The notes under the pieces are model-generated. The model was not told where the DNA came from. It did not search any database and worked only from the letters and a program-made list of their open reading frames with translations. A stretch of 33,807 bases of DNA from a virus. Lineage: Duplodnaviria; Heunggongvirae; Uroviricota; Caudoviricetes. The position numbers and the translations under genes were made by a program. This document shows positions 12,833 through 30,981 of this stretch, piece after piece (the stretch's first letter is position 1; each line of letters starts with the position of its first letter). The DNA lies in IMG/VR virus record IMGVR_UViG_2695420701_000007, positions 1 to 33,807 of that record; one strand, given 5' to 3'.

Positions 12833-13945
12833 TTACAGCGGTTCAAACTGCGCGGGTTGTTCGCCGGGGGCTGCGCCCGGCGTCGGTGTGCGCTGGCTTT
12901 CAATGACCGAAAAACGCTGGCTCAGATTTTCGATTGCACTGGTAAGCGTTGTCAGTGTGGCGGCGTCGGCCTCATCATCTTTTTCCGTCTTCCGGGTACT
13001 GAAATTCTGCGCTGCGGCTGGCGCTGGCTGTTGTCCGCCATTACGGGCGGCGATACGTGCCTGGAGTTTTGCGGTTTCAGCATCCTGTGGCTGCACCGTA
13101 AAGGTGTTAAGTGCGGTCTGTAGCTCCGTCACGGCGGTGGTGTAGTTCTGGCGTGCCGTGTCGTCTTTCGGGTTGATGGCCAGTGTGTCAGTGGCAACGG
13201 AAAGCTTTTCACTCAGCTCCGCAACGTGATTAGCGTGAGCGCTGAAATCCCCGGTTACTGGCTGTGTGTCTGCTGTTGCGGATGCCGTGGGCTGCGCCGG
13301 TGCGGGTTGCTGTGCCTGTGGTTGCGTGTTCGCCTGCGCGTCAATTTTTGCCGTCAGAGTGACAATCTGGGCTAGCAACTGGTTCGCCTGTTCTTTAGTC
13401 ATGGATTTATCCTCATGATGGTTTGTTGGGGTGTCAGCGACCAGCGTCAGACGCCCAAGACTGAACATTTCAATATTTCCAGCGGCGGCATACTGCGGAC
13501 GTGAGCCCTGTGTGTTGTTTTCCACTGATTTGATTTCCATGCGCTGGGTTCCCAGACTTGCCGGACTGTCGGTTGCTGCCAGCCCGTACAGATAGGTTTG
13601 CCCGGTGTTGGCATAGTTCTCCCAGAACTCGCACGAGGTAAAGAGCTTCTGGCCGCGATCGTTAAGGTTAACCAGCGCCTGGTTAGGCTCCAGCTTCGCC
13701 ATAAGGCGCAGTCTTCCGGCGTCTTCTTTAGCCGCCAGCTCGGAAACAAGCCCCAGATTGGGGGTAAATTCTCGCTCCTGAAGACTGTATACGGGGTGAT
13801 TAGGCCAGATCATCGCTGTGTATCTGGCGGTGCTGTAGTTGTCAGCGGCCTGCTGGATCATTTCGCGGGTAATGGGGCGACCGTCGATGGCGTAGCCTTC
13901 GGTTGCTATGCATATCCAGTCAGTGGTGTATTTCTGCTTTGCCAT
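12833..13945 (-). CDS. O: Capsid scaffolding protein, P2 gpO-like
   Basis: Listed ORF 12833-14005; likely start at internal Met MAKQKYTTDW... (complement of 13943-13945). Contains NYANTGQTYLYGLAATDSPASLGTQ, matching the conserved gpO block, plus a long Q/A/P-rich low-complexity linker. Confidence 0.75.
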   Translation of the reverse strand: MAKQKYTTDWICIATEGYAIDGRPITREMIQQAADNYSTARYTAMIWPNHPVYSLQEREFTPNLGLVSELAAKEDAGRLRLMAKLEPNQALVNLNDRGQKLFTSCEFWENYANTGQTYLYGLAATDSPASLGTQRMEIKSVENNTQGSRPQYAAAGNIEMFSLGRLTLVADTPTNHHEDKSMTKEQANQLLAQIVTLTAKIDAQANTQPQAQQPAPAQPTASATADTQPVTGDFSAHANHVAELSEKLSVATDTLAINPKDDTARQNYTTAVTELQTALNTFTVQPQDAETAKLQARIAARNGGQQPAPAAAQNFSTRKTEKDDEADAATLTTLTSAIENLSQRFSVIESQRTPTPGAAPGEQPAQFEPL

Positions 13946-14102
13946 TTCATTACCGCTTTTTGATGTATCTGGCGGTATTATTGCGGCTGTTTTCGCGGGT
14001 TTCATTCGTTCTGAATCCGGGCTTTTCGTATATGATTTTATGTGCGAAAAATGCCAAAATTTAACGATATTTCAGAGTGTTATTGCTCTTTATGATGGGC
14101 GA

Positions 14103-15926
14103 ATGAAATATACCGAAGAAGTCAGGGACGCTGCCCGCGCCCTGTATCTGAAATTCAGTACACCAAAAGAGATAGCGGCCACGCTGGGGCTTCCTGTGCG
14201 TACCGTTTATAACTGGGCTGTCCGGGGGCAATGGAATGAAATGTTACCAGCCGAGTCGGTGGAAGTGGCTGTCGCCCGGCGAGTGGAACGACTGACCTGC
14301 AAGGATGGTAAAAGCGAGCTTGAGCTTGAAGAGCTGCGCTTCCTGATATCCCAGCACGTCAGGCTGATGGCGCAGAAGAACAAACATGCTGAACGGATGG
14401 AAGAGATCCGGGCGATGGTCAATACCGGCGTGGTGGTCAATGATGGCCGACAGGGTAGCAGTGAAGAAGGGAATGACGAAGGTGGTAAAAAAAGGAAGCG
14501 ACTACGTAAAAATGATGTCGGCGGACTGACAAAAGAAATATTTGATGAAAAAGCGAATGGTCATCTGTTTGAATATCAGCAATATGTGCGTGAGCACGGC
14601 GACGAACTGTTCCGCTTCATTCTGAAAGGGCGACAGGAAGGATTTACCTACTATTTTGCATGGGAAGGGTTTGAAAAGGCCGTTCTCACGGGCAAGAATC
14701 AGATATTCTTTTCCGCCAGTAAACCCCAGGCGGAAGTTTTCCGTTTCTATATTCTCAGTATTGCGCAGCAATTCTTTGGTGTCGAGCTTAAAGGCAACCC
14801 GATTCGCCTCAGCAATGGTGCGATACTGCGTTTTCTGGCGACCAATCCCAATACGGCGCAGTCCTACAGTGGCGACCTGTACGGGGATGAGGTCTTCTGG
14901 ATACCGAAATTTGCCCGCCTGCATGAAGTGGCGTCAGCGATGGCGACGCATGACGAATTCCGTATTACCTACTTTTCAACCCCCAGCGCTAAAACGCACC
15001 AGGCTTACAGGCTGTGGACAGGGGATGAATGGAAGGGCGACGATCCGAAACGTAAGGCGGCGGAGTTCCCGACCAGCAAGGAATTGCGTAAAGGTGGACG
15101 GGTCTGCCCTGACGGGATCTGGCGCTATGTCATCACTATGGAGGATGCGTGCGCTAAGGGACTCAGTGCCAGAGTTAACATTGAGAAGCTGCGTAACCGC
15201 TACAGCGCCACGGCGTTTGCCATGCTGTACATGTGTGAGTTCACTGACTCCCGCGACACAGTATTTAAATTCTCAGACCTTGAAAAATGTGAGGTTGAGT
15301 TCGGCATCTGGCAGGACTTCGACCCCTCCGCATTACGGCCTTTTGGTAATCGTGAGGTGTGGGGCGGTTTTGATCCGTCACGAACGGGTGATAACTCAAC
15401 ATTTGTTATTGTGGCCCCGCCTGTTGAGTCTAAAGAAAAATTTCGCGTGCTGGCTGTCTACCAGTGGGTGGGGCTTAACTTCACCTGGCAGGTTAAGCAG
15501 ATTGAAGAATTAATGAAACGCTACCGGTTTACGCATATCGGGGTGGATATCACGGGTATTGGCCGGGGTGTTTATGATCAACTGGTACGCTCCGCACCGC
15601 GTGAGGTGATGGGGATTAACTACAGTGTTGATAATAAAAATAAACTGGTGCTTAAGATGATTGACCTCATTGAGCGGCGACGTATCCAGTGGGTGAAAGA
15701 TGCGGTTGATGAGGTGACAAAAGAACGTGCCGATATCCCGCTGGCATTTATGGCCATCCGCCGTGTAATGACTGCCAGTCAGAACGCAATGACGTTCGCC
15801 GCCGAACGCAGCGAAACGACCGGTCACGCGGACGTATTTTTTGCCATATCGCACGCGGTCTGTAATGAACCGCTCGACTATGAATATGACCGCCCCTCGG
15901 TGTGGGCATTCGGGAAGGCTGCATGA
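14103..15926 (+). CDS. P: Terminase ATPase (large) subunit, P2 gpP-like
   Basis: Listed ORF 13908-15926 overlaps the divergent gpO start; likely start at MKYTEEVRDAARALYL (about 14103). About 608 aa, divergent from O as in the P2 PQ / ONML arrangement. Confidence 0.8.
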   Translation: MKYTEEVRDAARALYLKFSTPKEIAATLGLPVRTVYNWAVRGQWNEMLPAESVEVAVARRVERLTCKDGKSELELEELRFLISQHVRLMAQKNKHAERMEEIRAMVNTGVVVNDGRQGSSEEGNDEGGKKRKRLRKNDVGGLTKEIFDEKANGHLFEYQQYVREHGDELFRFILKGRQEGFTYYFAWEGFEKAVLTGKNQIFFSASKPQAEVFRFYILSIAQQFFGVELKGNPIRLSNGAILRFLATNPNTAQSYSGDLYGDEVFWIPKFARLHEVASAMATHDEFRITYFSTPSAKTHQAYRLWTGDEWKGDDPKRKAAEFPTSKELRKGGRVCPDGIWRYVITMEDACAKGLSARVNIEKLRNRYSATAFAMLYMCEFTDSRDTVFKFSDLEKCEVEFGIWQDFDPSALRPFGNREVWGGFDPSRTGDNSTFVIVAPPVESKEKFRVLAVYQWVGLNFTWQVKQIEELMKRYRFTHIGVDITGIGRGVYDQLVRSAPREVMGINYSVDNKNKLVLKMIDLIERRRIQWVKDAVDEVTKERADIPLAFMAIRRVMTASQNAMTFAAERSETTGHADVFFAISHAVCNEPLDYEYDRPSVWAFGKAA

Positions 15927-16978
15927 GTAAACGTAAAAGCGCACGCCTGCGTAAACGGGCACAGACAGAAAATTTTACTCCCGGACGCGGCAATATTATC
16001 ACTTTCGGGGAGCCGGAACCGATACTGACTACCGGCACGGAATACATCAACGTCTGGTATAACGGTAGCTACAACTACTGGACACTACCAATAGACAGAC
16101 TTGCGCTCGCGCAGTTGCCGAATCTTAACGCCCAGCATGGCGGCGTACTGTATGCACGCAAAAATATGGTGTGTGCCAGCTACCAGGGGGGTGGACTGAC
16201 GACCGATCAGATGGAAATGGCTGTCTTTGACTACCTGCTGTTTGGTGATGTGGCCATTCTGAAGGTCCGTAACGGGTGGGGACGGGTGGTGGCGCTGGCA
16301 CCATTACCGTCTTTGTATCTGCGTCGCAGCAAGCAACTTGATTTTATCGTGTTACAGGAGGGCGAGCCGCTGGTCTATTCGCCGTCTGATGTTGTGTTTT
16401 TACGTATGCATGATCCGCGACAGCAGATTTATGGACTGCCTGATTATATCGGTGGTATTCATTCAGCGTTACTGAACAGTGAGGCGACCATTTTCAGACG
16501 TCGCTACTATCACAACGGTGCGCATATGGGGTTCATCATGTACGCGTCCGACCCGAATATGTCTGTTGAGGCTGAAGAAGCTATACGTAAAAAAATAGAG
16601 AGCGGTAACGGGCTTGGGAATTTCCGTAACATGTTTATCAGTATCCCAAAAGGGCAACCGGACGGGATTAAAATTATTCCGGTTGGGGATATTCAGCAAA
16701 AAGATGAGTTTTCAAATGTGAAGAATATCAGCGCTCAGGATGTTCTTACGGCGCACCGCTTTCCGGCTGGTCTTGCCGGTATTATCCCGCAAAATGCGAG
16801 CGGACTTGGCGATCCCGATAAGGCAAGGACAACCTATGGACGGGATGAAGTGACACCTGTCTGCCGTAAATTCATGCAGGCTGTGAACAGCGATCCCGAA
16901 ATCCCCCCGTCGTTACACCTTAATTTTACGCTGGAAGATGTGGAAAATGTGGTGTCTGCGCTGGCTGATGAAAAATAA
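15923..16978 (+). CDS. Q: Portal protein, P2 gpQ-like
   Basis: Listed ORF 15902-16978; probable start at MSKRKSARLRK overlapping the terminase stop; FGEPEPIL near the N-terminus as in gpQ-type portals. Confidence 0.75.
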   Translation: MSKRKSARLRKRAQTENFTPGRGNIITFGEPEPILTTGTEYINVWYNGSYNYWTLPIDRLALAQLPNLNAQHGGVLYARKNMVCASYQGGGLTTDQMEMAVFDYLLFGDVAILKVRNGWGRVVALAPLPSLYLRRSKQLDFIVLQEGEPLVYSPSDVVFLRMHDPRQQIYGLPDYIGGIHSALLNSEATIFRRRYYHNGAHMGFIMYASDPNMSVEAEEAIRKKIESGNGLGNFRNMFISIPKGQPDGIKIIPVGDIQQKDEFSNVKNISAQDVLTAHRFPAGLAGIIPQNASGLGDPDKARTTYGRDEVTPVCRKFMQAVNSDPEIPPSLHLNFTLEDVENVVSALADEK

Positions 16979-17040
16979 CCCGAAAAAGACTATATTACCC
17001 CTGCAACCGGTCAGATTGTGGGGGGGTTATGGCGGGTGTG

Positions 17041-17304
17041 ATGAAAATTGAATGTCCGGCGTGTCACTGCCGGGCGGCTATACGCAAAACTGCATGGCAG
17101 GATGACGCAAAAACGCTGGCGGTAGTTTATTGCACCTGCACTAATTCTGACTGCAATATGCGTTTTTCGCTCAATCTTTCCGATCTTCGCGTGATTTCAC
17201 CCAGTGACCTGCAAACTGATGGTGTCGTTAAAGCATTGCTCCAGCGCCTTAAACCAGACGAAAGGCAAATGGCACTGGATATTCTGCTCAGTGATGGCGC
17301 GTAA
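17041..17304 (+). CDS. ogr: Ogr/Delta-like zinc-finger late-gene activator
   Basis: Listed ORF 17029-17304; likely start MKIECPACHC...; Cys pattern CPAC-x-C ... CTCTNSDC matches the Ogr/Delta C4 zinc finger. Confidence 0.7.
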   Translation: MKIECPACHCRAAIRKTAWQDDAKTLAVVYCTCTNSDCNMRFSLNLSDLRVISPSDLQTDGVVKALLQRLKPDERQMALDILLSDGA

Positions 17305-17386
17305 GTGCCATTCTGTGGGGCGGTGGATCTTCCGCTTCCTCGCCCTGACAGACTCACCGCTATGCGGTTCGCTAATCAGGGGCTGC

Positions 17387-17403
17387 GGCGAGCGGTTTTG
17401 CAC
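17387..17403. other. Candidate cos (cohesive end) site
   Basis: GGCGAGCGGTTTTGCAC resembles the P2 cos core GGCGAGGCGGGGAAAGCAC as I recall it; lies in a convergent intergenic region downstream of Q and ogr. Confidence 0.3.
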
Positions 17404-17438
17404 AATATGATCCAGTACAGCAACAGAGAGATTTAGTT

Positions 17439-17957
17439 TTATTCGAAGCTGGCAAGAATCTGTTCTCGAACAGAAGATTTCATCGTTAACCCACGATCCA
17501 GGAAAAATTGGAAATGCATTAAGGCTTGTTGTTTGTGGATAAATCTCCTGCGCACAGCCTCCTGGAGTAGCCCTCCGTGGCGGGCGGCTTTTACACCGCG
17601 TTCCGCACACGTTTTATAAACCGCATTATCCGCCGAAAGACATGTTGCATCATGTATTCTCGCGTTAACAACGCAGCTTATGTCCGCATACTTCAATGCT
17701 CTCCTGCGATTTTTTATCTCAGCCATTTCAATAAAATGTTCAGGTTCGTAATCATTGGTGAAATTGTATGGAAGTTGCAGGCGTGTAAGCTGTTCCTGAA
17801 CATCAAGATTGTATTTAGCTTTTAGTTCCTCGCAGACATAGGGGTCAATCCACACACCACCCGGGTAAATTTGCCAGATAAGATCTAAGCATTTACCTTC
17901 GTAAAAATCAGACAGTACATTCGTATCGATAACACATCTGGGGCATTCAAACGGCAT
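17439..17957 (-). CDS. PIN-like domain protein (DUF4411-like), putative toxin/nuclease
   Basis: Listed ORF 17439-17990; probable start MPFECPRCVIDTNVLSDFYEG (complement of 17955-17957), overlapping the upstream gene stop by about 11 nt. VIDTNVL is the typical N-terminal strand-1 motif of PIN domains; region is AT-rich. Confidence 0.55.
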   Translation of the reverse strand: MPFECPRCVIDTNVLSDFYEGKCLDLIWQIYPGGVWIDPYVCEELKAKYNLDVQEQLTRLQLPYNFTNDYEPEHFIEMAEIKNRRRALKYADISCVVNARIHDATCLSADNAVYKTCAERGVKAARHGGLLQEAVRRRFIHKQQALMHFQFFLDRGLTMKSSVREQILASFE

Positions 17958-19092
17958 CCTCTCCGGCCTCCTGTTCGTCGTACCATTCATCCAGAAGATT
18001 GCTGAGAGCTTTTCTGTCTAATTCTAAAAGTTCAGATATGAAGGTTTCCGACGCGGAACCGGCTTCCCATGCTTTACGCGATAAGACGGTTAGGCGACCT
18101 TTATAATTTAGTGCTTCCCTTATGGGATTTGGCTCGTGTCTCTTCCAGCCTTTACGATTGGCGGTTGCCCATAGGTATCTAGTGTTTTGCTGATTAATTA
18201 AATTACATTTACTAAGACGCTCAATGATGCAAGTGGCTGATACTCTGAAAATGCTTTTTAGTCTAAGGACGGTTTCCTCATACGCCCATCCACCACCTTG
18301 CATGACGAATTGTTTTCGCAACGCGCTTTCTGGTACCAAAAAACAAGCAGCAAAGTGATTAGCAACTTTTTCTTCCGGTGAAATTGCTTTGCCATTAGTT
18401 TTATAGCTTTTAGCAGGGCCATCATACTCATCACGGTGGAAGATAAGATGAGCATATTCATGGCAAATACTGAAGATTTGACGTTCTATTGAAATGCTGT
18501 CGTGAACATTTACATAAATCGCGGTACCGTATTTGTTCGAAAACGCAGAAAATCCGAATACCATCCCTTTATCGGTTTCCTCGCGATTGAACGGGATCAC
18601 TCGAATATCCGATGCTTCCAAAATGGCTACAATGTCACCAACGCAAGTAGCGTTTCCCATACCAAGACGGAAACGTTCTTCCATAGCCTTATCTTCGACT
18701 CTTCGCAAATCTTCTGCTTTGGCGGTAAAAACAGGCATTGAGTTAGGAAGATCTTCTGGCAAATTAGCATCAGCAGCTTCCTCAATTGCATTGATATTTT
18801 TTAACTTTTCAATCAACTCATTGCGAAGTCTGGCATCCAACAAATCCGGACTATCTGCTCGCATTGCAAAACGAAACTCGCCATCATCTTGCTCATAAAA
18901 ATACCCGACAGGCTTATCGAAAATCTTGCAGAGCATGATGAGTTGGGTAACGCTTGGGACGCCTAGCGCCTGCTCAAACTTACTGTAGGTTTGACGAACA
19001 ACACCGATCGCATCTGCGACGGCGCTTGCACTCATTCCTGCGTCGTTTCTGGCCTGAACCAAGCGTTCTGCTATACGCTGTTGAATGTTCAT
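17947..19092 (-). CDS. XRE-family HTH domain fused to ImmA/IrrE-type zinc metallopeptidase (COG2856-like)
   Basis: 381 aa; N-terminal HTH (MSASAVADAIGVVRQTYSKFEQ), C-terminal HExxH motif (ICHEYAHLIF) in a context typical of ImmA/IrrE peptidases; AT-rich codon usage. Confidence 0.65.
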   Translation of the reverse strand: MNIQQRIAERLVQARNDAGMSASAVADAIGVVRQTYSKFEQALGVPSVTQLIMLCKIFDKPVGYFYEQDDGEFRFAMRADSPDLLDARLRNELIEKLKNINAIEEAADANLPEDLPNSMPVFTAKAEDLRRVEDKAMEERFRLGMGNATCVGDIVAILEASDIRVIPFNREETDKGMVFGFSAFSNKYGTAIYVNVHDSISIERQIFSICHEYAHLIFHRDEYDGPAKSYKTNGKAISPEEKVANHFAACFLVPESALRKQFVMQGGGWAYEETVLRLKSIFRVSATCIIERLSKCNLINQQNTRYLWATANRKGWKRHEPNPIREALNYKGRLTVLSRKAWEAGSASETFISELLELDRKALSNLLDEWYDEQEAGEDAV

Positions 19093-19376
19093 ACGTCACC
19101 TGAATTTAACAATGGTGGCTCTTATGGGTTTAGATTGGTTAATTATTACTAACATTATGAATGGAGAGTTGCAAAAATCATAATTAAATTATGCAAATTT
19201 CATGGAGTGTGATGTGGTGTGGGTTCACACTCTCTGCTGATTACATCCAGGGCGGTTTCCGCCCTGGCTCTGCTTACTCAGGAAATAACGCCCGGATATT
19301 TCCGGCCATCTGACTGGTTATCTGTGCGGTTGGTACTGGCTGTGGCGTGGGCGTTCTGCCCTGTTTGCGCCCTGAC

Positions 19377-19745
19377 CTATGCAATCCGCGCCGGATTCAT
19401 ATGGCACATGTTGTGTCTTTTTTCTGCATGGTAATGAGCTTTGTTCTCGTTAAACGGTAACACCTCATTCAGCCCGGCACTTCTGAAATCAGCGTGTAAT
19501 TGCTCCAGTACTGTTTCTTTATCAGCACCCGTTAATTCGAGATAATCCCAGAGGCTGGCGCATAAACCACAGTTTCGCGAAAATATTCTGCCTGGATTTG
19601 CTCCGTTTTTCAGCCACAAATCATAAGTAATATAAAATCCGTGAAGTTGTTGCCTGATACTTTCTTTGATTTCCTGCGCTGGCACGGTGCCTGGTAATTG
19701 CTCTCTCATTGTGAATCTCTCCTGTGTTGTGCCGGTCTGGCGCAT
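19377..19745 (-). CDS. Hypothetical protein
   Basis: 122 aa ORF in the early operon downstream of replication gene A; start uncertain (alternative Met at MREQLPG). Confidence 0.35.
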   Translation of the reverse strand: MRQTGTTQERFTMREQLPGTVPAQEIKESIRQQLHGFYITYDLWLKNGANPGRIFSRNCGLCASLWDYLELTGADKETVLEQLHADFRSAGLNEVLPFNENKAHYHAEKRHNMCHMNPARIA

Positions 19746-20137
19746 GAATGGCGCTGCGGTAAAAAGACCCTTTGCGTCAGTGCGGCCTTGCGATTGACGG
19801 CAGTCAGCGTTCTGGCCAGCGCGACATTGTGTTTGCGGGTCTGCTCTTCGTGGTACTTCTGCATGATTTTCCCGGCCGGCGTGAGTGGTTCCGGCTCTTC
19901 CGGTGAACGGCGCGGACGAACGGCAACTATCCAGCTCTGATATTCACTGCCCGGTCGCCTGTTAAGTATGTCGGTGATGGTGGTTGTGGTGGTGCGATCG
20001 GGGCTGGCCACCGTGATTTCCAGTTCGTCCCCGGGCTGTGGTCTTGTGGCTACGCCTCTCAGTGTCATGGCTGGCGTGCGCTGGCGCATAACGGCGTCGA
20101 ACTGCTGACGCTGCATGGTGCAGTGAAATCGCGTCAT
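19706..20137 (-). CDS. Hypothetical protein downstream of replication gene A
   Basis: 143 aa ORF overlapping the end of gene A; Thr/Pro/Arg-rich. Confidence 0.35.
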   Translation of the reverse strand: MTRFHCTMQRQQFDAVMRQRTPAMTLRGVATRPQPGDELEITVASPDRTTTTTITDILNRRPGSEYQSWIVAVRPRRSPEEPEPLTPAGKIMQKYHEEQTRKHNVALARTLTAVNRKAALTQRVFLPQRHSCARPAQHRRDSQ

Positions 20138-22626
20138 GATCTTACCTCCGCTGACGACTCCTGTGTGATGACGATGCGGCGGGTTGTGGCGCTCCAGTAC
20201 GCGATACGCCCGTCGCCCGGGCGAACGCGGGCACCGTTACTCACGGAAATAATGGCTGCGTCAGGCAGCTGCACACCCAGCGCGTCGAGTTCGCGGGTGA
20301 TTTGTGCGATGGTCGTGGTGTCGACAGGCACGACAACCTCCACCCTGACAGGGGTGTCTGATGCTGGTCTGGTGTTATTTTGTCCGGTATCCGTGGCGGG
20401 CGGCTGATTTTTAAGCTGTCTGATGAGCTGTTTCCGCTCGTAATGGCTCAATCCCTGCAACCATTGTGTCAGGCCATTTTCCGGAAGTGTCAGACGTTTC
20501 TCCTGCTGCCTGTTTTCTGTGCCGGTTCCGGCTGTTTTTTCGTCGCCGGGACAGTTATTGCCACGAGTCCAAGGGGCGGCAGGGCCGCCCTGAAGGTCAA
20601 AACCATTTTCGCGGGCGCTGTCTTCCGCTTCCGGTTTACGTCTTACCAGCTTCCAGTTGTCCGGATGCGTGCACACACGGGAGGATTCCCCGATGAGTGG
20701 CGACCAGATCCCGTAAATCTGTACGCTCTGTTCGCCGTAATCGTTCAGCTCATCTGCGAGGTCGTAGGCGGTGCGAATCAGGTAGTCCTTACGTGGAACA
20801 AGTACGCCGCCCTGTTTCTCTATGTAGGTGGCAAAACACCCGGCATCAGCGGCAGCAAGAACCGCATCCATTGCGTCATCCTTCAGCCGTTGCGGGCCTT
20901 CCGGGTTGCGTGCCATCTGGCTGGCAAGGCGGCGCAGTTCACGCCATACCTGACGGGAGGGGATGCCAAAGAACTGGAACTGGCGGACCCGGTGAAGGCG
21001 CGCCCAGCCGATGGCGCGTTCCACGCTTTCTGCCATCGTCTTTCCTGATTCGTCGTCGATGCGCGGTTTGCCTGTTTTCGGGTCAATGCCATCCACGGCG
21101 TGGCTGTCCAGGTTCTTTCCGATGTAGGTGGCGATATAGCTGGTCGGCGTACCTTTCGAACCGTCGACGTACTCCGCCTTAAAGCGCGGAGTTATGTCAT
21201 CGCCCAGCTCGTGGCGGTCTTCACGAATGGCAATATCGCGGGCGATGGTCACGATGCTGTCGATTTCTTCAGGATGTGCAAAGACCATCATATGCCAGTG
21301 CACCGTGCCGTCATGGTGAGGCTCCACCGTGCGGATGCCATACCAGCGCAGGCCCTTGCGGTCCAGTCTGTTACGAACGGCTTTAAAAAAAGTGTTAACC
21401 AGATAATCACTGGAATCGCGCATGGTAGCCCCGTTCCATTTGGGGTTCGGATGACCGTTCTCCGTTGTTGCGTGGTATTTTGACGGGCAGGTGACAGTCA
21501 GAAACACCGCTTTGTCGCCACGGGATTCGGCTATAAGTTCCGCCCCTTTCATGGTGGCCATCATTTCTGCCTTACGGTGAACCGGGTTACTTACTCCCGC
21601 GTAATACACTGTCTCGAGATCAATCGTGAACCCGTCTTCATTTTCCAGCATGAAACTTTTCAGGAAATCGCGTGTTTTCTCGCGCTGTGCGCGAAACTCA
21701 CTTAACGCGTCCTGGCTCAGATAGGGCGATGTTTTTCTGGAAACCAGACAGGCGGCGCGGAGTTGTTCTTCTCTCCACTCGCAACGTAAAAGCCACAGTT
21801 TGCGTTTCCACCAGTCCGCACAGGTCAGGCGAAGGATTGCGCCCGGCAGCAGTTCCGTGTCCGGTTCGTTCTTGCGGTCTTTGTCTGTTGTCAGCGCGTC
21901 ATAATGTGGAGGCATGGCGTGCAGGTGTAGCGCCATGCGGGCCAGCATCTGATACGCCTTCAGTGCCACCTCCATGGTCAGCTCGCCATCTCTGGCACCG
22001 AAACCATCACAGAGTGTTTCAAAGGAGCTGCTGAACATTGCCGCCGTCATGGTGCCCAGCGTCTGTATCTGGTGCTTGTTAAGCTGCGGCAGGTACAGCA
22101 AATCGTCCAGGCGTTCGCGTCCGGCAAGGGCGCGATAACCCGGTGTCAGCCAGCGGCTGTCGGTGCGGTCCAGTCGTTCGAATATTTTGCGCAGGGTTCC
22201 GCGCGCGTAGCCCTCTGATGGTCGACTCTTTTTGCCTTTCTGGCGGTCAGATTCCTGCTTCTTACGTAAAAAAGAGAGGCGGCGGCTCAGAGGTTCACGC
22301 AGATAAACAGGTAGCGCCTTTAGTGTGACAAATGCACGGGCCACCGGGTCTTGTTCTGTTGCCTGGCGCTTGCTGATGATGCTTTGTGTTACCTTCTCGC
22401 GCCGTTCGTCCTCATCGAGGGCGACCATGAGTTTTTTACCCATGTCTGACTGCACAAAAAAGGCTTCTTCTTCCGCCTCCCTGACTTCCTGTGCTTTCAG
22501 ATCTGCTTCCTGGTAGTAGCGTATGGCCTGTTGCAACGGGGTTTCAGGCGTAGGCTGATACTTCGCAAATGTGGCTGGGTCAATGGCCTGCCGTGGTTCG
22601 TTCCAGTCCCAGGTAAATTCACTCAT
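20134..22626 (-). CDS. A: Replication initiation endonuclease, P2 gpA-like (rolling-circle Rep)
   Basis: Listed ORF 20134-22653 (839 aa); probable start MSEFTWDWNEP. Size and position (end of early operon) match P2 gene A; contains His/Tyr-rich central region (GTVHWHMMVFAHPEE ... TPTSYIATYIGKN) compatible with HUH-type endonuclease motifs. Confidence 0.8.
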   Translation of the reverse strand: MSEFTWDWNEPRQAIDPATFAKYQPTPETPLQQAIRYYQEADLKAQEVREAEEEAFFVQSDMGKKLMVALDEDERREKVTQSIISKRQATEQDPVARAFVTLKALPVYLREPLSRRLSFLRKKQESDRQKGKKSRPSEGYARGTLRKIFERLDRTDSRWLTPGYRALAGRERLDDLLYLPQLNKHQIQTLGTMTAAMFSSSFETLCDGFGARDGELTMEVALKAYQMLARMALHLHAMPPHYDALTTDKDRKNEPDTELLPGAILRLTCADWWKRKLWLLRCEWREEQLRAACLVSRKTSPYLSQDALSEFRAQREKTRDFLKSFMLENEDGFTIDLETVYYAGVSNPVHRKAEMMATMKGAELIAESRGDKAVFLTVTCPSKYHATTENGHPNPKWNGATMRDSSDYLVNTFFKAVRNRLDRKGLRWYGIRTVEPHHDGTVHWHMMVFAHPEEIDSIVTIARDIAIREDRHELGDDITPRFKAEYVDGSKGTPTSYIATYIGKNLDSHAVDGIDPKTGKPRIDDESGKTMAESVERAIGWARLHRVRQFQFFGIPSRQVWRELRRLASQMARNPEGPQRLKDDAMDAVLAAADAGCFATYIEKQGGVLVPRKDYLIRTAYDLADELNDYGEQSVQIYGIWSPLIGESSRVCTHPDNWKLVRRKPEAEDSARENGFDLQGGPAAPWTRGNNCPGDEKTAGTGTENRQQEKRLTLPENGLTQWLQGLSHYERKQLIRQLKNQPPATDTGQNNTRPASDTPVRVEVVVPVDTTTIAQITRELDALGVQLPDAAIISVSNGARVRPGDGRIAYWSATTRRIVITQESSAEVRS

Positions 22627-23012
22627 GGTTGACACCCTGTCACGCGTTGCCATTCCTGCGAGAAGAGGGCAGAAAGACGGTTAAACTCAGTGGTGTATTC
22701 ACTCAGCGAGGCACACCCGCCAGCGGTGCGATGCGCCAGCATTGCTGCAAACACGGAGGCAGGGGAGTTGTAATACGCCAGCAGGGAGTCGCCGTGTGGT
22801 GTCAGGGTGTACAGGGCCAGACCGTGTGGTGTGAAGTCCACGCGGTAACAGTCGTCCACGATGAAATAAAGGGGGCCTGCGTTCTCTGGTTTTGTGGTGC
22901 GAGCCTGGCTGGCGCGGGCACGGAGATAGAAATCAAACATTGCCTGAAGTTTTGGAGCCAGACGGGTGTCCTGTGTGCGCACCCATTTTACGAAGTCATG
23001 ACGGTCAATCAT
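22623..23012 (-). CDS. Hypothetical protein upstream of gene A
   Basis: 129 aa ORF, stop adjacent to gene A start. Confidence 0.4.
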   Translation of the reverse strand: MIDRHDFVKWVRTQDTRLAPKLQAMFDFYLRARASQARTTKPENAGPLYFIVDDCYRVDFTPHGLALYTLTPHGDSLLAYYNSPASVFAAMLAHRTAGGCASLSEYTTEFNRLSALFSQEWQRVTGCQP

Positions 23013-23315: not shown

Positions 23316-23492
23316 GATGTGGCCTCTATGTGTGTAAGTTTTGAAAACTCACCATCCAGAGCTGCGAAACTGTGGGTGGCGAGACGTACGAGGTTCGCAG
23401 TACCGGCAAACATAGAACCCGGCCCGACCGAAGTCGGCCCCGTACGCCCCACCATAATTCGTGTGCGAAAAAGATGTGGCGATACAGTACGC

Positions 23493-23515
23493 ACAAAAAA
23501 ACCGCTGGCGCGGTT
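23493..23515 (-). terminator. Rho-independent terminator candidate (minus strand)
   Basis: Minus-strand reading AACCGCGCCAGCGGTTTTTTTGTG: GC-rich hairpin (ACCGC/GCGGT) followed by a T7 run, inside a roughly 320-bp non-coding stretch. Confidence 0.5.
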
Positions 23516-23635
23516 GTGCGCTATGTTTGTCAGCGGGCTGCGAAACCCGGCACCCGTTTTATGAGGTGCAGCGGAAATGTAACCTGACTGATTGCGACAT
23601 GGCAAGCGGTTTTTTTGTGTGTGCATGATGATCAC

Positions 23636-24190: not shown

Positions 24191-24492
24191 GATTTGGCCT
24201 CCTTACGGCTTTCTGGTGTGGAGATGATCAGATTCAGTTTCAGGGCGGTGGCGTGTTCCTCTTTTGCCCCCGGCGAGTCCTCCCAGCCATCCAGCAGGTA
24301 AATCACATCGGCACAGTGCAGCATGGCGCTCCCGATAAGCATGTAGTCCCTGTATCTCAGCCCGTCAGGGAGTGTTGCGGGGTTGAGTACGGTATGACCC
24401 TGCATCCTCAGGCGGGTCGCCGTCATGGTGAAGGCGGTGCGGTTGAAATCAGGCTTCCCCGTCATGGGGCCAGCGATATAGATAACGGCCAT
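24181..24492 (-). CDS. Nucleoside 2-deoxyribosyltransferase-like protein (DUF4406-like)
   Basis: 103 aa starting MAVIYIAGPMTGKPDFNRTAF, the typical N-terminus of the DUF4406 / deoxyribosyltransferase-like fold found in phages. Confidence 0.5.
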   Translation of the reverse strand: MAVIYIAGPMTGKPDFNRTAFTMTATRLRMQGHTVLNPATLPDGLRYRDYMLIGSAMLHCADVIYLLDGWEDSPGAKEEHATALKLNLIISTPESRKEAKSCF

Positions 24493-25451
24493 TACATGAT
24501 CTCCGTGGTGGGGTGTGGAGCGGGAATGTGAGACAGCCAGCCCGCATTGACATCCCGGATCCGGACCTCACGGGCTGGCGGATAAACACCAATCACCTCT
24601 TTTGCCTGCTGGCGTGCACTGCTGCTGGCAGCCACAGCGCGGCGAACGCTCAGGGTGTGCAGCTCAAACGAGGAATAGATCTGCCGGGTTTCGGAGGTGT
24701 CACTGTTGGAGACCACCGGGTGGATACCGTAACGCTGCCAGGCGTTCATCATGAGCGCCGCAAGGTCACGGTGGTCTTTGCGGGTAAATGCCCGGCCGTT
24801 GTAGTGAGTGAACGCCTCTTTACCGTCCGGTGGCAGGTAGGGCGGATCGCAGTAAATGGCGATATCGCCGTGCACCGAAGAAAAACGGCGGATCTCAGCC
24901 GGCATTGTGAAGGCTGTACGGAAATCCGCGTGAATAAAGCGGGTCCGGGTCTCGTTGGCTTTATCAGCAAACAGGCGCATTTCCTGGCAGGGGAAATAAG
25001 GCATGCGGTGTTTGCCGAATGGCACATTGAATTCGCCTTTTTGGTTGGTGCGGTACAGGCCGTTAAAGCAATGGCGGTTCAGGTACAGAAACAGCGCTGC
25101 CCATTCCAGGGATTCGCCGCGTAATCTGTCGGTGGCCAGCGCGATGGTGTTAAATGCCCCGCGATGGCGTTTGTAGGCTTCCGGTGTGCCGCCATCCTTA
25201 AAGAGCGACCATGCACGATCCATTAATTCCGTGGTGTTGGTCGTCAGTTGCTGGTAGAAATTAATCAGCGCGGGGTTGCTGTCACACAATACGTAATAGT
25301 CATAATCCGTGTTCATGAAGACCGAGCCGCCGCCCACGAAGGGTTCGATCAGGCAGGCGGCTTTGGGTAAATATTCGCGCAGCTGCGGCATGATACTGAA
25401 TTTGCCGCCCGCCCATTTGAGCGGTGAGCGCTGGTTCAGAATACCTTTCAT
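24492..25451 (-). CDS. dam: DNA adenine methyltransferase (Dam-like, D12 class N6-A MTase)
   Basis: 319 aa; N-terminal LKWAGGK motif, catalytic DPPY motif (IAIYCDPPYLPP), FxGxG-like SAM region (EPFVGGGSV). Confidence 0.8.
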   Translation of the reverse strand: MKGILNQRSPLKWAGGKFSIMPQLREYLPKAACLIEPFVGGGSVFMNTDYDYYVLCDSNPALINFYQQLTTNTTELMDRAWSLFKDGGTPEAYKRHRGAFNTIALATDRLRGESLEWAALFLYLNRHCFNGLYRTNQKGEFNVPFGKHRMPYFPCQEMRLFADKANETRTRFIHADFRTAFTMPAEIRRFSSVHGDIAIYCDPPYLPPDGKEAFTHYNGRAFTRKDHRDLAALMMNAWQRYGIHPVVSNSDTSETRQIYSSFELHTLSVRRAVAASSSARQQAKEVIGVYPPAREVRIRDVNAGWLSHIPAPHPTTEIM

Positions 25452-26970: not shown

Positions 26971-27156
26971 CTACGTCTTCTTTGTGCTGAATGAATGCGT
27001 TGTATGCATCCCGTTTTTTTTCTGGCGACGTCTGTCGCGTATTTCCCGCCATGTATCAATAAGTGTCAGTATGCAGATGGCAAAAAACATTGCGGCTGCA
27101 ATCAGTGTGATAACAAATAACGACTCCGGTACACTGAATGAATAACTGAAATTCAT
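26971..27156 (-). CDS. Small single-pass membrane protein
   Basis: 61 aa; hydrophobic helix LFVITLIAAAMFFAICILTLI followed by basic tail RDRRRQKKNG. Confidence 0.4.
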   Translation of the reverse strand: MNFSYSFSVPESLFVITLIAAAMFFAICILTLIDTWREIRDRRRQKKNGMHTTHSFSTKKT

Positions 27157-27161
27157 CGTGA

Positions 27162-27404
27162 TTACTCCGTAATTATTGCGGGTTCGGGAACCATGCCATC
27201 CGTTAATTGTTTCGCCATCCGGTTAAGTTCTTTAAGGTCCTCGCTGGCTCCCGTATCTTTTGAACAAAACAGGGTGTTGCGGACGCTGAATATTCCGCAC
27301 TTCATTACTTCGAAGTGTGTTTTTCTGGCGCGGGGATTAATTTCGTTATCGAAGTAATATCCCTGCAGAAATTCGTTTACCTGTTCTGCTGTGTGTTTTC
27401 TCAT
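27162..27404 (-). CDS. Hypothetical protein
   Basis: 80 aa ORF, 5 nt upstream of the small membrane protein gene. Confidence 0.4.
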   Translation of the reverse strand: MRKHTAEQVNEFLQGYYFDNEINPRARKTHFEVMKCGIFSVRNTLFCSKDTGASEDLKELNRMAKQLTDGMVPEPAIITE

Positions 27405-27445
27405 AACGGAGTCCTCGTTAAAAATAACCGGTGATAAACCCGCTG

Positions 27446-27796
27446 TTATAACTCAGCCTGTTTAATAAAATTTTCTCCGTAAAGAAGGCGATCAACTGTG
27501 CGTAGCGCTTCGTACAACGTGAAATCCTGCCCGAACTGATTGTCGCCGCAGCTCAGAGCAAAAATGCGGTTTCCGGTAAACGGATTGCGCGGGTATTTGT
27601 GGACCACTATTCCAGCTTTCTCAATCATCCAGGTATGCTCGCCAATTTGTTTTACTGTATGGCCATCTGGTGTTGCGTGCGTCTCGTTCAGGTTATAGCG
27701 ACTGTTACTACGTGATGCACTGGTAGCGACGTGGTGTACATGGCGTTCTACGCCATTACGAAATTTGGAGTATGGATTATTAGTGTTTTTTTTCAT
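27446..27796 (-). CDS. Hypothetical protein
   Basis: 116 aa ORF in the early operon. Confidence 0.4.
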   Translation of the reverse strand: MKKNTNNPYSKFRNGVERHVHHVATSASRSNSRYNLNETHATPDGHTVKQIGEHTWMIEKAGIVVHKYPRNPFTGNRIFALSCGDNQFGQDFTLYEALRTVDRLLYGENFIKQAEL

Positions 27797-27817
27797 GATG
27801 ATGCTCTGTTCATTGTT

Positions 27818-28021
27818 TTAGCTGTTAGCCAAAGCGTCTTTTAACATCGCCACAAGGTTTACTTCAGGCTTTTCCATTTTGGCGCGTTTGGGGCGGATAA
27901 TAATTCGACCGTCAGCCAACATCTTTTTGCATGTATTAAGAGGGATACCTGTTATCTCTGCATATTTCTGCAGGGATACATAGGGGGCATTCACATTGAT
28001 ATTGATGGTTATACCTGACAT
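27818..28021 (-). CDS. Cox-like HTH regulator / excisionase-type protein
   Basis: 67 aa; APYVSLQKYAEITGIPLNTCKKMLADGRIIIRP follows the pattern of P2 Cox N-terminus (IPYQEFAKLIGKSTGAVRRMIDKGKLPVI). Confidence 0.5.
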   Translation of the reverse strand: MSGITININVNAPYVSLQKYAEITGIPLNTCKKMLADGRIIIRPKRAKMEKPEVNLVAMLKDALANS

Positions 28022-28037
28022 CCCACTAACCTCCTGA

Positions 28038-28244
28038 TCAGGAAGATTTGTTTTGTTCTTTCTGGGTTAGCTCTAGGCCGCGAAGGAAGATCATGCGCGC
28101 CATGTTAGAGGATGAGCGTTGTTCTTTAGCTGCCATCTCATCAATAAAGGCGCGCTCCTCCGCTGACAGTCGAAGTGCCAGTCTTTGACCTGTGGCGGTG
28201 TTACGCGGAATGCGTGACTTGGTGTCGTGACTAACTTGATTCAT
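28038..28244 (-). CDS. Ribbon-helix-helix-like small regulator; first gene of the early operon (Cro/Apl position)
   Basis: 68 aa; RLALRLSAEERAFIDEMA...SSNMARMIF resembles an RHH (Arc/CopG-type) fold; divergent from the repressor gene. Confidence 0.45.
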   Translation of the reverse strand: MNQVSHDTKSRIPRNTATGQRLALRLSAEERAFIDEMAAKEQRSSSNMARMIFLRGLELTQKEQNKSS

Positions 28245-28303
28245 AGTGGTACATTGTGATCATCTAATGGTTCGTGAAATTACTTTAGGGAACAAAACTT
28301 CCT
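28245..28303. promoter_or_regulatory. Divergent promoter/operator region of the lysis-lysogeny switch
   Basis: 59-bp gap between divergent repressor (plus) and early-operon (minus) starts; contains the TGATCA palindrome (with a GATC Dam site) in ACATTGTGATCATCTAATGG. Confidence 0.5.
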
Positions 28304-28717
28304 ATGTCAACAGAAAAAGAGGAACTAAGCGTCATTATTGGCCGTCGATTACGGGAGGAGCGAGAGAAAATTGGCATGACCCAAGATGATATGGCGTCGA
28401 TTTTTGAAGTTTCTACAAAGACTTGGGGGAAGTATGAAAGAGGGGTGACTACACCGGATGCAGTTATGTTGAATCTCTTGGGAGGGCGCTGCGGAGTAGA
28501 TGTCTATTACATACTTTCTGGTAGTCGTGCACATGGCATCCCTAATGCTACTGAAGATGAGATTGAGCTAATTAAAATATATCGTTCTGCACCTTTGGCT
28601 GTTAAGGCGGCAGCTTTGGCAGCCTTGACTGCTGGTAGTTTGTCTCTAGGTACAATAAGAGCTTCTGGCAAAGGCCATCGTATTGCAGGTCGTGACTATA
28701 ACGAAACGAAGGGTTAG
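28304..28717 (+). CDS. Immunity repressor, XRE-family HTH (CI/C-like)
   Basis: 137 aa; N-terminal HTH (GMTQDDMASIFEVSTKTWGKYERG); divergent from the early operon and co-oriented with integrase. Confidence 0.7.
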   Translation: MSTEKEELSVIIGRRLREEREKIGMTQDDMASIFEVSTKTWGKYERGVTTPDAVMLNLLGGRCGVDVYYILSGSRAHGIPNATEDEIELIKIYRSAPLAVKAAALAALTAGSLSLGTIRASGKGHRIAGRDYNETKG

Positions 28718-28735
28718 TGATAGTAGGGAGGTGAC

Positions 28736-29383
28736 ATGGCTGTCAACTCAAACGGTTCAGACAATCGCGTTTCTGGGCGTGATTACCACGAAAAGAACAT
28801 TCGGATAGAGCGGTATGATGGTCGTCATACAGTCAACATTGCAATCCCTTCCTGTGGGGCTGATGAGCGCCCATTAGTCAAGGCTCAGCGCCATCAACTG
28901 AAGTTGTTGGTTGATAAGATTGTTGATGTCAGCAAGGAAGAATCGTTTGTTGTCTGGCGTAAACTTCATGCTGAAATCGGTGTTGATAGCATCGATAAGA
29001 TGACGGTGAATCAGTATCCAACCGCAATTAGCTTCCTCAATGCGATGCTTGACCGACATAAAGAGCGCGACGCCTGCAAATCACTTGTAAGTCTCCTTCT
29101 TCGCAATAGTGAGAATAATGAAGCTAGACAAAAACTTCTTCGATATTGTCATATCAATTTTGGAACAGGGCGCTTAAATGATCTTACTCGCTCTCAGCTT
29201 CAGATGGCTCTTTCATGGTTAGATCAGCAAACAACAGACTGTGAAAATAATTTGCCCTCAGATAATTCTAAATTTGTCGATAAACAATCGCGATTAGTGT
29301 TTCAGCAAATAATTAAAACATATCCAAAAGAAATGGGGGTATGTTTTGTTATTGGTGTTTTATTAGGCATGATTCTTTTCTGA
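28736..29383 (+). CDS. Hypothetical C-terminally membrane-anchored protein (cargo between repressor and integrase)
   Basis: 215 aa; single C-terminal hydrophobic helix GVCFVIGVLLGMILF; AT-rich relative to the phage core; co-transcribed orientation with repressor. Confidence 0.5.
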   Translation: MAVNSNGSDNRVSGRDYHEKNIRIERYDGRHTVNIAIPSCGADERPLVKAQRHQLKLLVDKIVDVSKEESFVVWRKLHAEIGVDSIDKMTVNQYPTAISFLNAMLDRHKERDACKSLVSLLLRNSENNEARQKLLRYCHINFGTGRLNDLTRSQLQMALSWLDQQTTDCENNLPSDNSKFVDKQSRLVFQQIIKTYPKEMGVCFVIGVLLGMILF

Positions 29384-29588
29384 TAGATCGTTGTTGGAGA
29401 AATCAATTATGGCAAAAGCTTGCTTTAACGACTTTGAAAGAAATAAAAAAGATAAATTAAGCGAGCTGACAAAGGTGAGATAAGGGGGAGTGCAACTAGT
29501 AATGTAAAAAATGGTGTGAGTTACTTGTCATAGTCTTAAAGTGAAGTAATTCCTTGTTCACTAGGAAGTTCAAAGAGGTAAATGAATT

Positions 29589-29846
29589 ATGGTAACTAAT
29601 CCGCAAATTCCATTGACTGGCTTATATGTATCCAAAGTTAATCCATCTAATCGTATAGTTGTTACTGATGTTCATATTGTTTAGGATGATGACGATGAGC
29701 CAGGAGAGCTTCCTTTCTATTTGGTTACTTTTGTAAATGAGGGGGATGAGGATGATATGTTGGCTCCTTCTTGGGAGCTAGATCCTGAGGAATGGGAGCA
29801 GTTAGTTGATGAAGAGCGCTTTATGCGCGTGGAGCAACCATCTTAA
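29589..29846 (+). pseudogene. Small acidic ORF interrupted by an in-frame TAG (amber) codon
   Basis: Good SD (AGAGG) then MVTNPQIPLTGLYVSKVNPSNRIVVTDVHIV - TAG at 29682-29684 - continuing in the same frame DDDDEPGELPFYLVTFVNEGDEDDMLAPSWELDPEEWEQLVDEERFMRVEQPS to TAA at 29844-29846. Confidence 0.4.
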
Positions 29847-29872
29847 TTTATCCTTGGTGTGCACTTTTTAAG

Positions 29873-30874
29873 ATGTCTGTTCGTAAATTACCTACTGGCA
29901 AATGGCTCTGTGAATGCTACCCCTACGGAGCAGCAGGAAAACGCATTCGTAAACAGTTTGTTACTAAGGGTGAGGCGCTCTCTTATGAGCGCCGTTTAAT
30001 GAACAGTAATTTGGGGAGCGAGTTTCAGGATGGTTCTGGCCCCCGCCTTTCCGAGTTGGTTGCTCGCTGGTTTGAGATGTACGGTAAGACACTGTCTTCC
30101 GGTGAAGAGCGAAGGGCTAAACTTGAGGCGATTTGCTCCCGGTTGGGGGATCCGCTTGCTTCTCAATTTGATAAAAACATGTTTGCCACCTACAGGGAAC
30201 GGCGATTATCAGGTGAATGGAATCCAAAGGGGAAGAGGAAGCTTAGCGAAGCAACCGTTAATCGTGAGCAGTCATATCTACATGCTGTTTTTGCCGAACT
30301 GAAGCGCCTTGGGGAGTGGTCTGGTGAAAACCCCTTAACTGGCATTCGCAAATTTCGTGAGGAAGAAAAGGAACTGGCGTTTCTGTATGTAGATGAGATT
30401 GAACGCCTTCTGATTGCGTGTGATGAGTCACGGAATAAAGATTTGGGGGTTGTTGTCCGTATTGGGCTTGCGACTGGTGCTCGGTGGAGTGAAGCAGAAG
30501 GATTAAAGCAATCTCAAGTACTGCCCGGTCGAATCACATTTGTTAAAACTAAAGGAAAGAAGAACCGCACTGTACCGATTTCACCTCAATTGCAGGCTAT
30601 GCTTCCTAAAAAACGAGGAGCGCTATTTTCACCATGTTATGAGGCTTTTGACGCTGCAATTAAGAGAGCGAAGATCGAGCTTCCTGATGGGCAATTAACT
30701 CATGTGCTACGTCACACGTTTGCCAGTCATTTTATGATGCGGGGCGGAAATATTCTTGTGTTGCAAAAAATACTGGGGCATAGCGATATAAAAATGACTA
30801 TGCGTTATGCGCATTTTGCTCCAGGTCATTTAGAGGCTGCTGTTGAATTGAACCCTTTTGACAATAGAGGGTAA
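29873..30874 (+). CDS. int: Tyrosine integrase (phage integrase family)
   Basis: 333 aa; C-terminal catalytic region HVLRHTFASHFMMRGGNILVLQKILGHSDIKMTMRYAHF (HxxR ... Y); adjacent to the tRNA-derived att core. Confidence 0.85.
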   Translation: MSVRKLPTGKWLCECYPYGAAGKRIRKQFVTKGEALSYERRLMNSNLGSEFQDGSGPRLSELVARWFEMYGKTLSSGEERRAKLEAICSRLGDPLASQFDKNMFATYRERRLSGEWNPKGKRKLSEATVNREQSYLHAVFAELKRLGEWSGENPLTGIRKFREEEKELAFLYVDEIERLLIACDESRNKDLGVVVRIGLATGARWSEAEGLKQSQVLPGRITFVKTKGKKNRTVPISPQLQAMLPKKRGALFSPCYEAFDAAIKRAKIELPDGQLTHVLRHTFASHFMMRGGNILVLQKILGHSDIKMTMRYAHFAPGHLEAAVELNPFDNRG

Positions 30875-30981
30875 AAAGTGGCGATAAAAAGTGACAATAG
30901 ATTCAAATGGCGTTGTATAGAGCTATTTTCAAAGTTAATAAAATCATAAGGTTATGATTTATAAATGGTGGTTGATAGTTT

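Follow-up and report, generated by a model that had tools for sequence, protein, structure and literature searches.

Introduction

What is the function of two overlapping genes of low G+C content lodged between the ogr-like gene and the replication gene of a P2-family prophage, and did they evolve with that prophage or arrive in it as cargo? The stretch of DNA analyzed here (33,807 nucleotides; IMG/VR record IMGVR_UViG_2695420701_000007; hereafter the window) is a P2-family prophage of Escherichia coli integrated beside yecA/tyrP. Between positions 17,439 and 19,092, on the minus strand, it carries a gene for a protein that fuses an XRE-type helix-turn-helix (HTH) domain to a zinc metallopeptidase of the M78 (ImmA/IrrE) family, followed by a gene for a small protein resembling PIN-domain nucleases. 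A preliminary description, made from the nucleotide sequence, had proposed that this pair is a defense or toxin-antitoxin (TA) module foreign to the core of the phage.

Several reported systems provide a framework for this proposal. RosmerTA consists of a Zn-peptidase antitoxin, which could not be deleted, and a toxin whose function is not known (Millman et al. 2022, bioRxiv 10.1101/2022.05.11.491447); its toxins are variable and it defends against phages (bioRxiv 10.1101/2022.05.11.491447; PMC10440598), a phage-encoded member being active against specific coliphages (Ernits et al. 2023, PMC10440598). Antitoxins of the NetFlax D25 ImmA node are also paired with PIN-like toxins (PMC10440598), and "three-component" TA systems joining HTH-DUF955 (COG2856) proteins with PIN proteins of the COG2405/DUF3368 type have been predicted (Matelska et al. 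2017, PMC5499597). The interval between gpA and gpQ of P2-like phages is, in turn, a hotspot for defense and accessory genes (Rousset et al. 2022, PMC9122126; Moura de Sousa et al. 2026, PMC13586616).

Here we describe the predicted folds and active sites of the two proteins, the coupling of their genes, their inheritance across remotely related genomes and the mobility of the cassette that contains them. By analogy with these relatives, we consider it probable that the pair constitutes a RosmerTA-type toxin-antitoxin or abortive-infection module having a ribonuclease as its effector.

Results

An HTH domain fused to an M78 peptidase with an intact metal site

The features discussed are listed in Table 1. 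In the 381-residue product of the first gene, Pfam HTH_3 covers residues 13-65 (E-value 6e-8) and Peptidase_M78, the IrrE/ImmA domain, covers residues 193-294 (6e-12), within a peptidase region placed at about residues 150-300. The architecture first read from an HEYAH motif in the translation was thus borne out. The candidate third metal ligand is E241, within the sequence EEKVAN; a glutamate at this type of position is the usual third zinc ligand. Among 44 aligned peptidase homologs, with identities down to 24%, no substitution occurs at H211, E212 or E241, and H215 is kept in at least 90%, from which we conclude that the M78 protease is under selection as an enzyme. The AlphaFold2 (AF2) model, with a predicted local distance difference test (pLDDT) score of 87, comprises the HTH (residues ~1-66), a low-confidence linker (~66-90), an alpha/beta peptidase core and an all-helical C-terminal domain (300-381). 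Top Foldseek matches were IrrE/PprI and CapP for the peptidase core and the HTHs of P22 c2, SinR, C.BclI and DdrO for the N-terminus.

Profile comparisons placed this protein among known antitoxins, in keeping with the TA class suggested for the pair at the outset. Its best match to the PADLOC models of the RosmerTA antitoxin RmrA (3.2e-35) aligns residues 4-321 of 381 with positions 9-315 of 383, and 14 further RmrA models are matched, making 15 altogether. The phrog_2439 family is also matched (2.5e-45), as is the NCBIfam spr1629 repressor/antitoxin model (2.4e-24, below its curated cut-off).

The structural neighbors of the core, together with matches to PADLOC capP (2e-15) and, weakly, capH (0.023), raise a different possibility, in which the protein is a damage-responsive repressor/protease controlling prophage genes and the PIN protein is an accessory of RNA processing, not a toxin; the invariant HEXXH...E site, implying that catalysis matters, would suit this proposal equally. 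We regard such a regulatory switch as very improbable. The fit to capP is far poorer than that to the RmrA models, HTH and protease form one protein instead of being encoded separately, and the only gene downstream is that of the PIN protein, with no CBASS, integrative and conjugative element (ICE) or SOS-type operon. Sibling prophages, moreover, function without the pair, which also enters settings outside phages as a unit complete in itself, as documented below.

A PIN-fold protein with a conserved acidic quartet

The mechanically called open reading frame (ORF) of the second gene spans 17439..17990 (183 codons for amino acids). The true start is almost certainly M12 at position 17957, giving 172 residues, because the RefSeq annotation by PGAP begins there (WP_001115690.1), a GGAGAGG Shine-Dalgarno sequence lies upstream and homologs share a near-invariant MPF N-terminus. 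In this numbering the VIDTNVL signature on which the PIN-like assignment had been based occupies residues 9-15. The Pfam PIN profile (PF01850) aligns residues 9-116 with its positions 2-117 of 120, at an E-value of 3.5e-5 and 24.8 bits, the gathering score being 23.6. In a Foldseek comparison of the AF2 model (pLDDT 94) with the PDB, all of the top 24 matches were PIN proteins, VapC toxins or chains of HARP, a PIN-type RNase P; the best E-value was 6.5e-5, with TM-scores of 0.6-0.69 normalized by target length. A three-helix C-terminal extension lies beyond this fold. Sequence-based links to solved structures failed: a profile search of the PDB with the PIN protein matched no PIN structure, and hhalign against an approximate Shigella VapC sequence returned a probability of 0.07. 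The connection of the PIN fold to solved structures therefore came from fold comparison only.

Conserved acidic residues, which the preliminary description had named as a feature to look for, are present as the quartet D11/E44/D92/D110, with spacing typical of PIN catalytic quartets. All four are invariant in close homologs; in relatives of 20-38% identity D11 and E44 remain invariant, D92 is conserved in at least 90% and either D or E stands at position 110.

Within the PIN superfamily, the expectation of membership in DUF4411 had to be rejected (one of 13 relatives matched, at 0.021), while that of an ImmA/IrrE peptidase next to a PIN protein held. Profile matches instead point to the DUF3368/COG2405/PDC-S70 branch as that to which the protein belongs. 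The precomputed Pfam profile PF11848.14 matches 24 of 30 PIN homologs (56-98% identical), and PF11848 also occurs on the partner PIN genes in most of the related loci examined; PF11848.13 (DUF3368) did not match the window protein at E ≤ 0.1, and matched two of 13 relatives. PADLOC PDC-S70 matches 10 of the 13 family members (best 1e-15, with distant members at 1e-14 to 1e-15) and the window protein at 4e-4.

These features also bear on an extremely improbable alternative in which the roles are reversed or decayed, the metallopeptidase being the toxic component, or the PIN protein being catalytically irrelevant or a nuclease directed at DNA. A Brucella pair of Zn-metalloproteinase and HTH-Xre proteins is reported to have the protease as its toxin (PMC10538038), and the PIN superfamily does include DNA nucleases. 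The peptidase-bearing protein is nevertheless the antitoxin in RosmerTA and RipAB, conservation of the acidic quartet down to 20% identity argues against decay, and the structures closest to it are RNases of the VapC type and RNase P-like HARPs rather than DNA nucleases resembling FEN.

Coupling of the genes and a candidate operator

The two genes overlap by 11 nt, as originally reported, an arrangement now reinforced by the RefSeq/PGAP start of the PIN gene and its Shine-Dalgarno sequence, and they are translationally coupled. Copies of the pair from Rahnella, Gibbsiella and metagenomes show an overlap of the same 11 nt, and the PIN gene is the only gene co-transcribed with the HTH-peptidase gene.

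Four diverged lineages of enterobacteria carry, upstream of the first gene, an inverted repeat of the form GTYA-N8-TAAC; its spacers differ, but its offset from the antitoxin ATG (-61) is the same. Its form GTTA-N8-TAAC is present once in the 33.8-kb window, against an expectation of 0.21. We infer from this conservation that GTYA-N8-TAAC is a reasonable candidate operator to which the HTH domain may bind. An AT-rich short palindrome at 19179-19193 was set aside as an operator, being not conserved in other lineages. Rfam and tRNA scans revealed nothing within the cassette (17373-19467).

Conserved pairing across remotely related genomes

Full-length homologs of each protein, with identities down to 20-25%, establish that both genes are real. 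Ten related locus groups that possess the PIN gene were examined, and in each of them the order is an HTH-M78 gene and then a PIN gene of the DUF3368 type; these overlap at most paired loci and are at most 11 nt apart at the remainder. One downstream partner, of 139 residues from a metagenomic locus, has no Pfam match but is 38% identical to the PIN protein. Across the paired loci, identities of the antitoxin to that of the window were 86, ~75, 60, 41-42, 33, 28-29 and 25%. For loci represented in both alignments, identities of antitoxin and PIN protein to those of the window were about 60/56, 41/37, 42/38, 33/23 and 28/20%, respectively. As identities of both proteins fall roughly in parallel, the partners appear to co-evolve within this clade rather than to swap; the alignments thus document two genes that are inherited together and co-diverge.

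The PIN protein family is small. At 90% identity it comprises 30 clusters. Of 1.84 billion representative clusters only 10 were matched at E ≤ 1e-3, and a close-alignment scan of representative genomes of 185,579 species gave three loci. A tblastn search of 50,697 phage records and 72,556 plasmids with the PIN protein yielded no match, and nothing was found for it among BFVD viral structures at E ≤ 0.001. Judged from the antitoxin comparisons above, the HTH-M78/PIN architecture is much older than the small PIN protein family found here.

The settings of the pair are diverse. In Rahnella it occupies a plain chromosomal site without a mobile element, as it does on chromosomal contigs from metagenomes; in Gibbsiella it lies in a degraded phage-like element (a Phage_GPA fragment and integrases). 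A metagenomic contig bears it with a phage-type lysozyme and a Mu-transposase-like gene. In Lamprobacter it adjoins an MmeI-type enzyme and another TA system; a further distant copy lies beside an MmeI-type restriction-modification enzyme, and another beside a BilA-D ubiquitin-like (Bil) defense system. These last neighborhoods are defense-island-like. An antitoxin-like gene with an Xre_MbcA_ParS_C domain also adjoins distant copies.

Decay of the pair was encountered in Erwinia E602, which has lost the PIN gene and has a frameshift splitting its antitoxin, a pattern that favors the TA reading. One Logan contig combines an intact PIN gene with a split antitoxin; this may be an assembly error and was given no reading.

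An exchangeable cassette in the gpA-gpQ hotspot

The order of genes in the window is portal, ogr, the cassette, two small genes and gpA. As initially placed, the pair occupies the interval from the ogr-like gene (17029-17304; Ogr_Delta, 5e-5) to the gpA replication endonuclease (20134-22653). The candidate cos site that had been proposed next to it was not confirmed. The P2 cos 19-mer aligned ungapped to the window with six mismatches at best, at a position not near ogr; the sequence beside ogr, searched through its identical counterpart in a sibling prophage, again gave a match with six mismatches; and none of the related phage records ends at the candidate position. Since only six-mismatch matches were obtained and no related phage record ends there, we do not endorse the candidate.

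Comparison with sibling prophages having the same portal and ogr genes defined the cassette and settled the earlier claim that the pair is cargo and not a core phage function. In FDAARGOS_943 and VL40 the site is empty: both align to 16900-17372 and 19468-20300 of the window, contiguously, and the two small genes preceding gpA come at most 55 bp after ogr. The cassette is thus present or absent among otherwise near-identical prophages. Its composition also differs, the pair having a G+C content of 0.44 where the remainder of the window has 0.52, in accord with the lower value first reported relative to the phage core, and third-position G+C of 0.40-0.42 against 0.53-0.63 for portal, terminase and gpA. 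Low G+C content is not unique to this site, as a second such stretch occurs at 27-31 kb.

A copy of the cassette occurs in a P88-like (Xuanwuvirus-type) prophage of strain AVS0662, which is 98% identical to positions 17400-19367 and carries the pair between the portal gene and an intact system of ParM and a partition protein. The ParM-associated remnant retained in the window matches partition genes of P88-like phages at 86-93%. The identity to the AVS0662 copy and this retained scrap of a partition gene together indicate that the cassette came from a P88-like hotspot by recombination. Overall, 32 of the complete E. coli genomes (5,426 in all) carry the pair, which is borne by two distinct phage backbones; in the 20 of these copies that were listed both genes are annotated intact. 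The pair is, then, exchangeable cargo of the gpA-gpQ hotspot. In the supplement text of Rousset et al. 2022, neither of the two RefSeq accessions was found, nor were the terms "PIN domain" and "ImmA".

This setting brings forward the main rival explanation, that of a pure addiction or stabilization module, which would retain the prophage or a plasmid-like form of it by post-segregational killing, without an anti-phage role. The pair does lie directly beside an intact partition system in the P88-like lineage, the cassette brought part of that partition gene along, partition systems occupy this locus in about a quarter of P2-like phages (PMC9122126), and RmrA-type antitoxins are essential genes where present (PMC13566846), as befits addiction modules. 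We nevertheless judge this explanation unlikely, because the pair also resides at plain chromosomal sites without a mobile element (Rahnella and metagenome contigs) and in defense-gene neighborhoods, and because validated RosmerTA systems and a PDC-S70 PIN protein, which protected E. coli against T4, T5 and T7 (bioRxiv 10.1101/2024.09.26.614923), do act against phages. Stabilization and defense are, in addition, mutually compatible.

The backbone receiving the cassette (window 13900-17304 and the prophage as a whole) represents a rare P2-family lineage. Its portal/ogr segment occurs in only six of the 5,426 complete E. coli genomes, and the portal gene has only 66-71% nucleotide identity to those of sequenced phages such as ESSI-2, SW5, vB_YenM_324 and phiO18P. 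At the boundary of the cassette, a 122-residue ORF (19377-19745, minus strand) is a chimera whose 3' end enters the cassette, siblings encoding an 82-residue protein there; it has no Pfam or PADLOC match. In CFSAN029787 and RMDEC332, IS600 (IS3 family), which is absent from the window, is inserted at 19410-19412, just upstream of the cassette; the alignments on either side share these 3 bp, which fits a target duplication.

Table 1. Coordinates of the paired genes, their signals and the inserted cassette in the window
Feature	Position	Strand	Basis
Putative antitoxin/repressor gene, XRE-type HTH + M78 (ImmA/IrrE) zinc peptidase, 381 aa	17947..19092	-	ORF and Pfam
HEYAH zinc-binding/catalytic motif, residues 211-215	18448..18462	-	Sequence and conservation
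Putative toxin gene, PIN-fold (DUF3368/COG2405-like) putative ribonuclease, 172 aa	17439..17957	-	Pfam, AF2, Foldseek
Antitoxin stop/toxin start overlap, 11 nt, ATGCCGTTTGA, with GGAGAGG just upstream	17947..17957	-	Sequence
Shine-Dalgarno AGGTGA of the antitoxin gene	19096..19101	-	GGTGAC.TATG conserved in all upstream alignments
Candidate operator GTTAGTAATAATTAAC (GTYA-N8-TAAC)	19138..19153	-	Conserved inverted repeat
-10-like CATAAT directly before the candidate operator	19154-19159	-	Sequence
3'-end remnant (~120 bp) of a ParM-associated plasmid partitioning/stability gene	19244..19367	-	BLAST, PGAP pseudogene
Inserted cassette, ~2.1 kb, G+C content 0.443, gpA-gpQ hotspot	17373..19467	.	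BLAST against sibling prophages

Other features of the prophage

The second stretch of low G+C content (27000-31000; 0.39-0.46) contains an XRE-HTH gene (28304-28717) and a gene for a 215-residue protein with no significant family match (28736-29383), both beside the integrase gene (29873-30874), and may represent the immunity region together with a second slot for cargo. The early region encodes an orphan Dam-like DNA adenine methyltransferase (24492-25451, minus strand; PADLOC oMTase, 6.6e-80) that likely has an anti-restriction or self-protection function. At 23372-23569 (minus strand), also in the early region, Rfam identified C4 antisense RNA (81.8 bits) and, adjacent to it, the Hfq-binding RNA isrK (69 bits); together these make up an immunity RNA pair of the P1/P7 type, here carried by a prophage of the P2 family. 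PGAP annotates a 32-residue fragment of a "ParE family toxin-like protein" near position 26200 of the early region, also present in siblings. A match to RNA-OUT, the antisense RNA of IS10, at 33757-33807 (minus strand) is cut by the end of the window, indicating that an IS10-type element begins at its right edge, in the chromosomal flank.

Discussion

The system that the pair most resembles is RosmerTA. Both are two-gene modules whose antitoxin combines an XRE-HTH with an M78 Zn-peptidase, the match to RmrA extending over nearly the full length of the protein; both occur on prophages and in defense islands; and the toxin partners of RosmerTA are variable by definition. They differ in that the putative toxin here is a PIN-fold nuclease outside all PADLOC RmrT models, the characterized RmrT toxins being a domain-less protein, a membrane-depolarizing protein (phage Kita) and a sliding-clamp binder (RipA), and in that the antitoxin gene comes first in the window pair, for which a defensive role is proposed by analogy. 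The literature on RipAB (spr1630/1629) and on the E. coli E101 module ties this class of antitoxin to ClpXP. The phrase "sensor-protease", applied to the first protein in the preliminary description, is an interpretation, given that the protease-bearing protein is the antitoxin in characterized relatives.

Other systems share particular attributes. With an HTH-peptidase fusion encoded upstream of a PIN gene of the DUF3368 type, the pair has exactly the domain architecture and gene order that Matelska et al. predicted; the systems of that study and of NetFlax are computational predictions, and the enterobacterial branch examined here is a small, divergent subfamily. With VapBC the pair shares a PIN-fold toxin with four acidic residues, a bicistronic overlapping operon and a DNA-binding antitoxin encoded first, but a 381-residue HTH-metallopeptidase takes the place of the small AbrB/RHH/Phd-type VapB, the toxin bears an extra C-terminal extension of three helices and sequence similarity to VapC is undetectable. 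The PDC-S70 protein belongs to the same PIN family at the profile level; it is, however, a single gene, mostly archaeal, whereas the PIN gene of the window type is always paired with an HTH-peptidase. ImmR/ImmA, DdrO/IrrE and CapH/CapP have separate genes for HTH and M78 protease, here fused in one protein, and no CBASS or ICE genes lie beside the window pair. Finally, old, tin and other cargo of the gpA-gpQ interval of P2 occupy the same slot and show the same pattern of presence and absence, with unrelated proteins.

Several observations weigh against assignment of the pair to a RosmerTA-type module with a ribonuclease effector. The Pfam score of the PIN protein is marginal, just clearing its threshold, and PDC-S70 matches it only weakly. 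No RmrT model in PADLOC is matched by this protein at E ≤ 1, or by 13 members of its family at E ≤ 0.01; RmrT being heterogeneous by definition, this would lower detection by such tools and not functional similarity. A scan of the coding strand upstream of the pair for consensus sigma-70 promoters found none, and the position beside ParM in P88-like prophages is one where a pure stabilization module would also be expected. Furthermore, toxicity, neutralization, RNA cleavage, autoregulation, trigger, substrate and phage defense are attributed to the pair by inference from characterized relatives (RosmerTA, RipAB, ImmA/ImmR, IrrE/DdrO and CapP/CapH), and even validated RosmerTA systems offer no established trigger or peptidase role to compare with.

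As a RosmerTA-type module, the pair might operate as follows. In a lysogen, the HTH-peptidase protein would repress its own promoter at the candidate GTYA-N8-TAAC operator and would keep the PIN nuclease inactive, whether by proteolysis, perhaps with ClpXP, or by binding it through the helical domain at its C-terminus. Infection or DNA damage could then provide a signal, such as single-stranded DNA or a phage protein, that switches the peptidase to cleave or inactivate the antitoxin, an idea drawn by analogy with the activation of CapP, PprI and ImmA by single-stranded DNA. The freed PIN RNase would cut tRNA, rRNA or mRNA, and translation and growth would stop; a superinfecting phage would fail by abortive infection, to the benefit of the lysogen population and the resident prophage.

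A broader proposal, which we consider somewhat doubtful, is that HTH-M78/DUF3368-PIN pairs form a distinct, ancient and strictly co-evolving anti-phage family missed by defense finders, in which the peptidase acts as a switch that senses a signal such as single-stranded DNA and cleaves itself or its HTH to free the RNase. That current finders would miss the pair follows from the lack of a match between its toxin and any RmrT model. If this proposal were true, the pair would be a tractable model for the sensing mechanism of RosmerTA, and one P2-family lineage would have gained a weapon from another by recombination between hotspots.

Both the architecture and the hotspot have been described previously, and the pair is a real, unsurprising addition to them that does not overturn current understanding. 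The locus documents a clean natural transfer from hotspot to hotspot, the same cassette being found in two different P2-family backbones and, in the window, still bearing a scrap of its former neighbor. With it one can also ask, in a simple E. coli system, whether the M78 protease in antitoxins neutralizes, senses or does both, with empty-site sibling prophages as a natural control and a nuclease effector as an easy read-out of the role of the protease. Should defense be shown, the cassette would add to RosmerTA a nuclease-effector branch that profile searches of the PADLOC type would not call.

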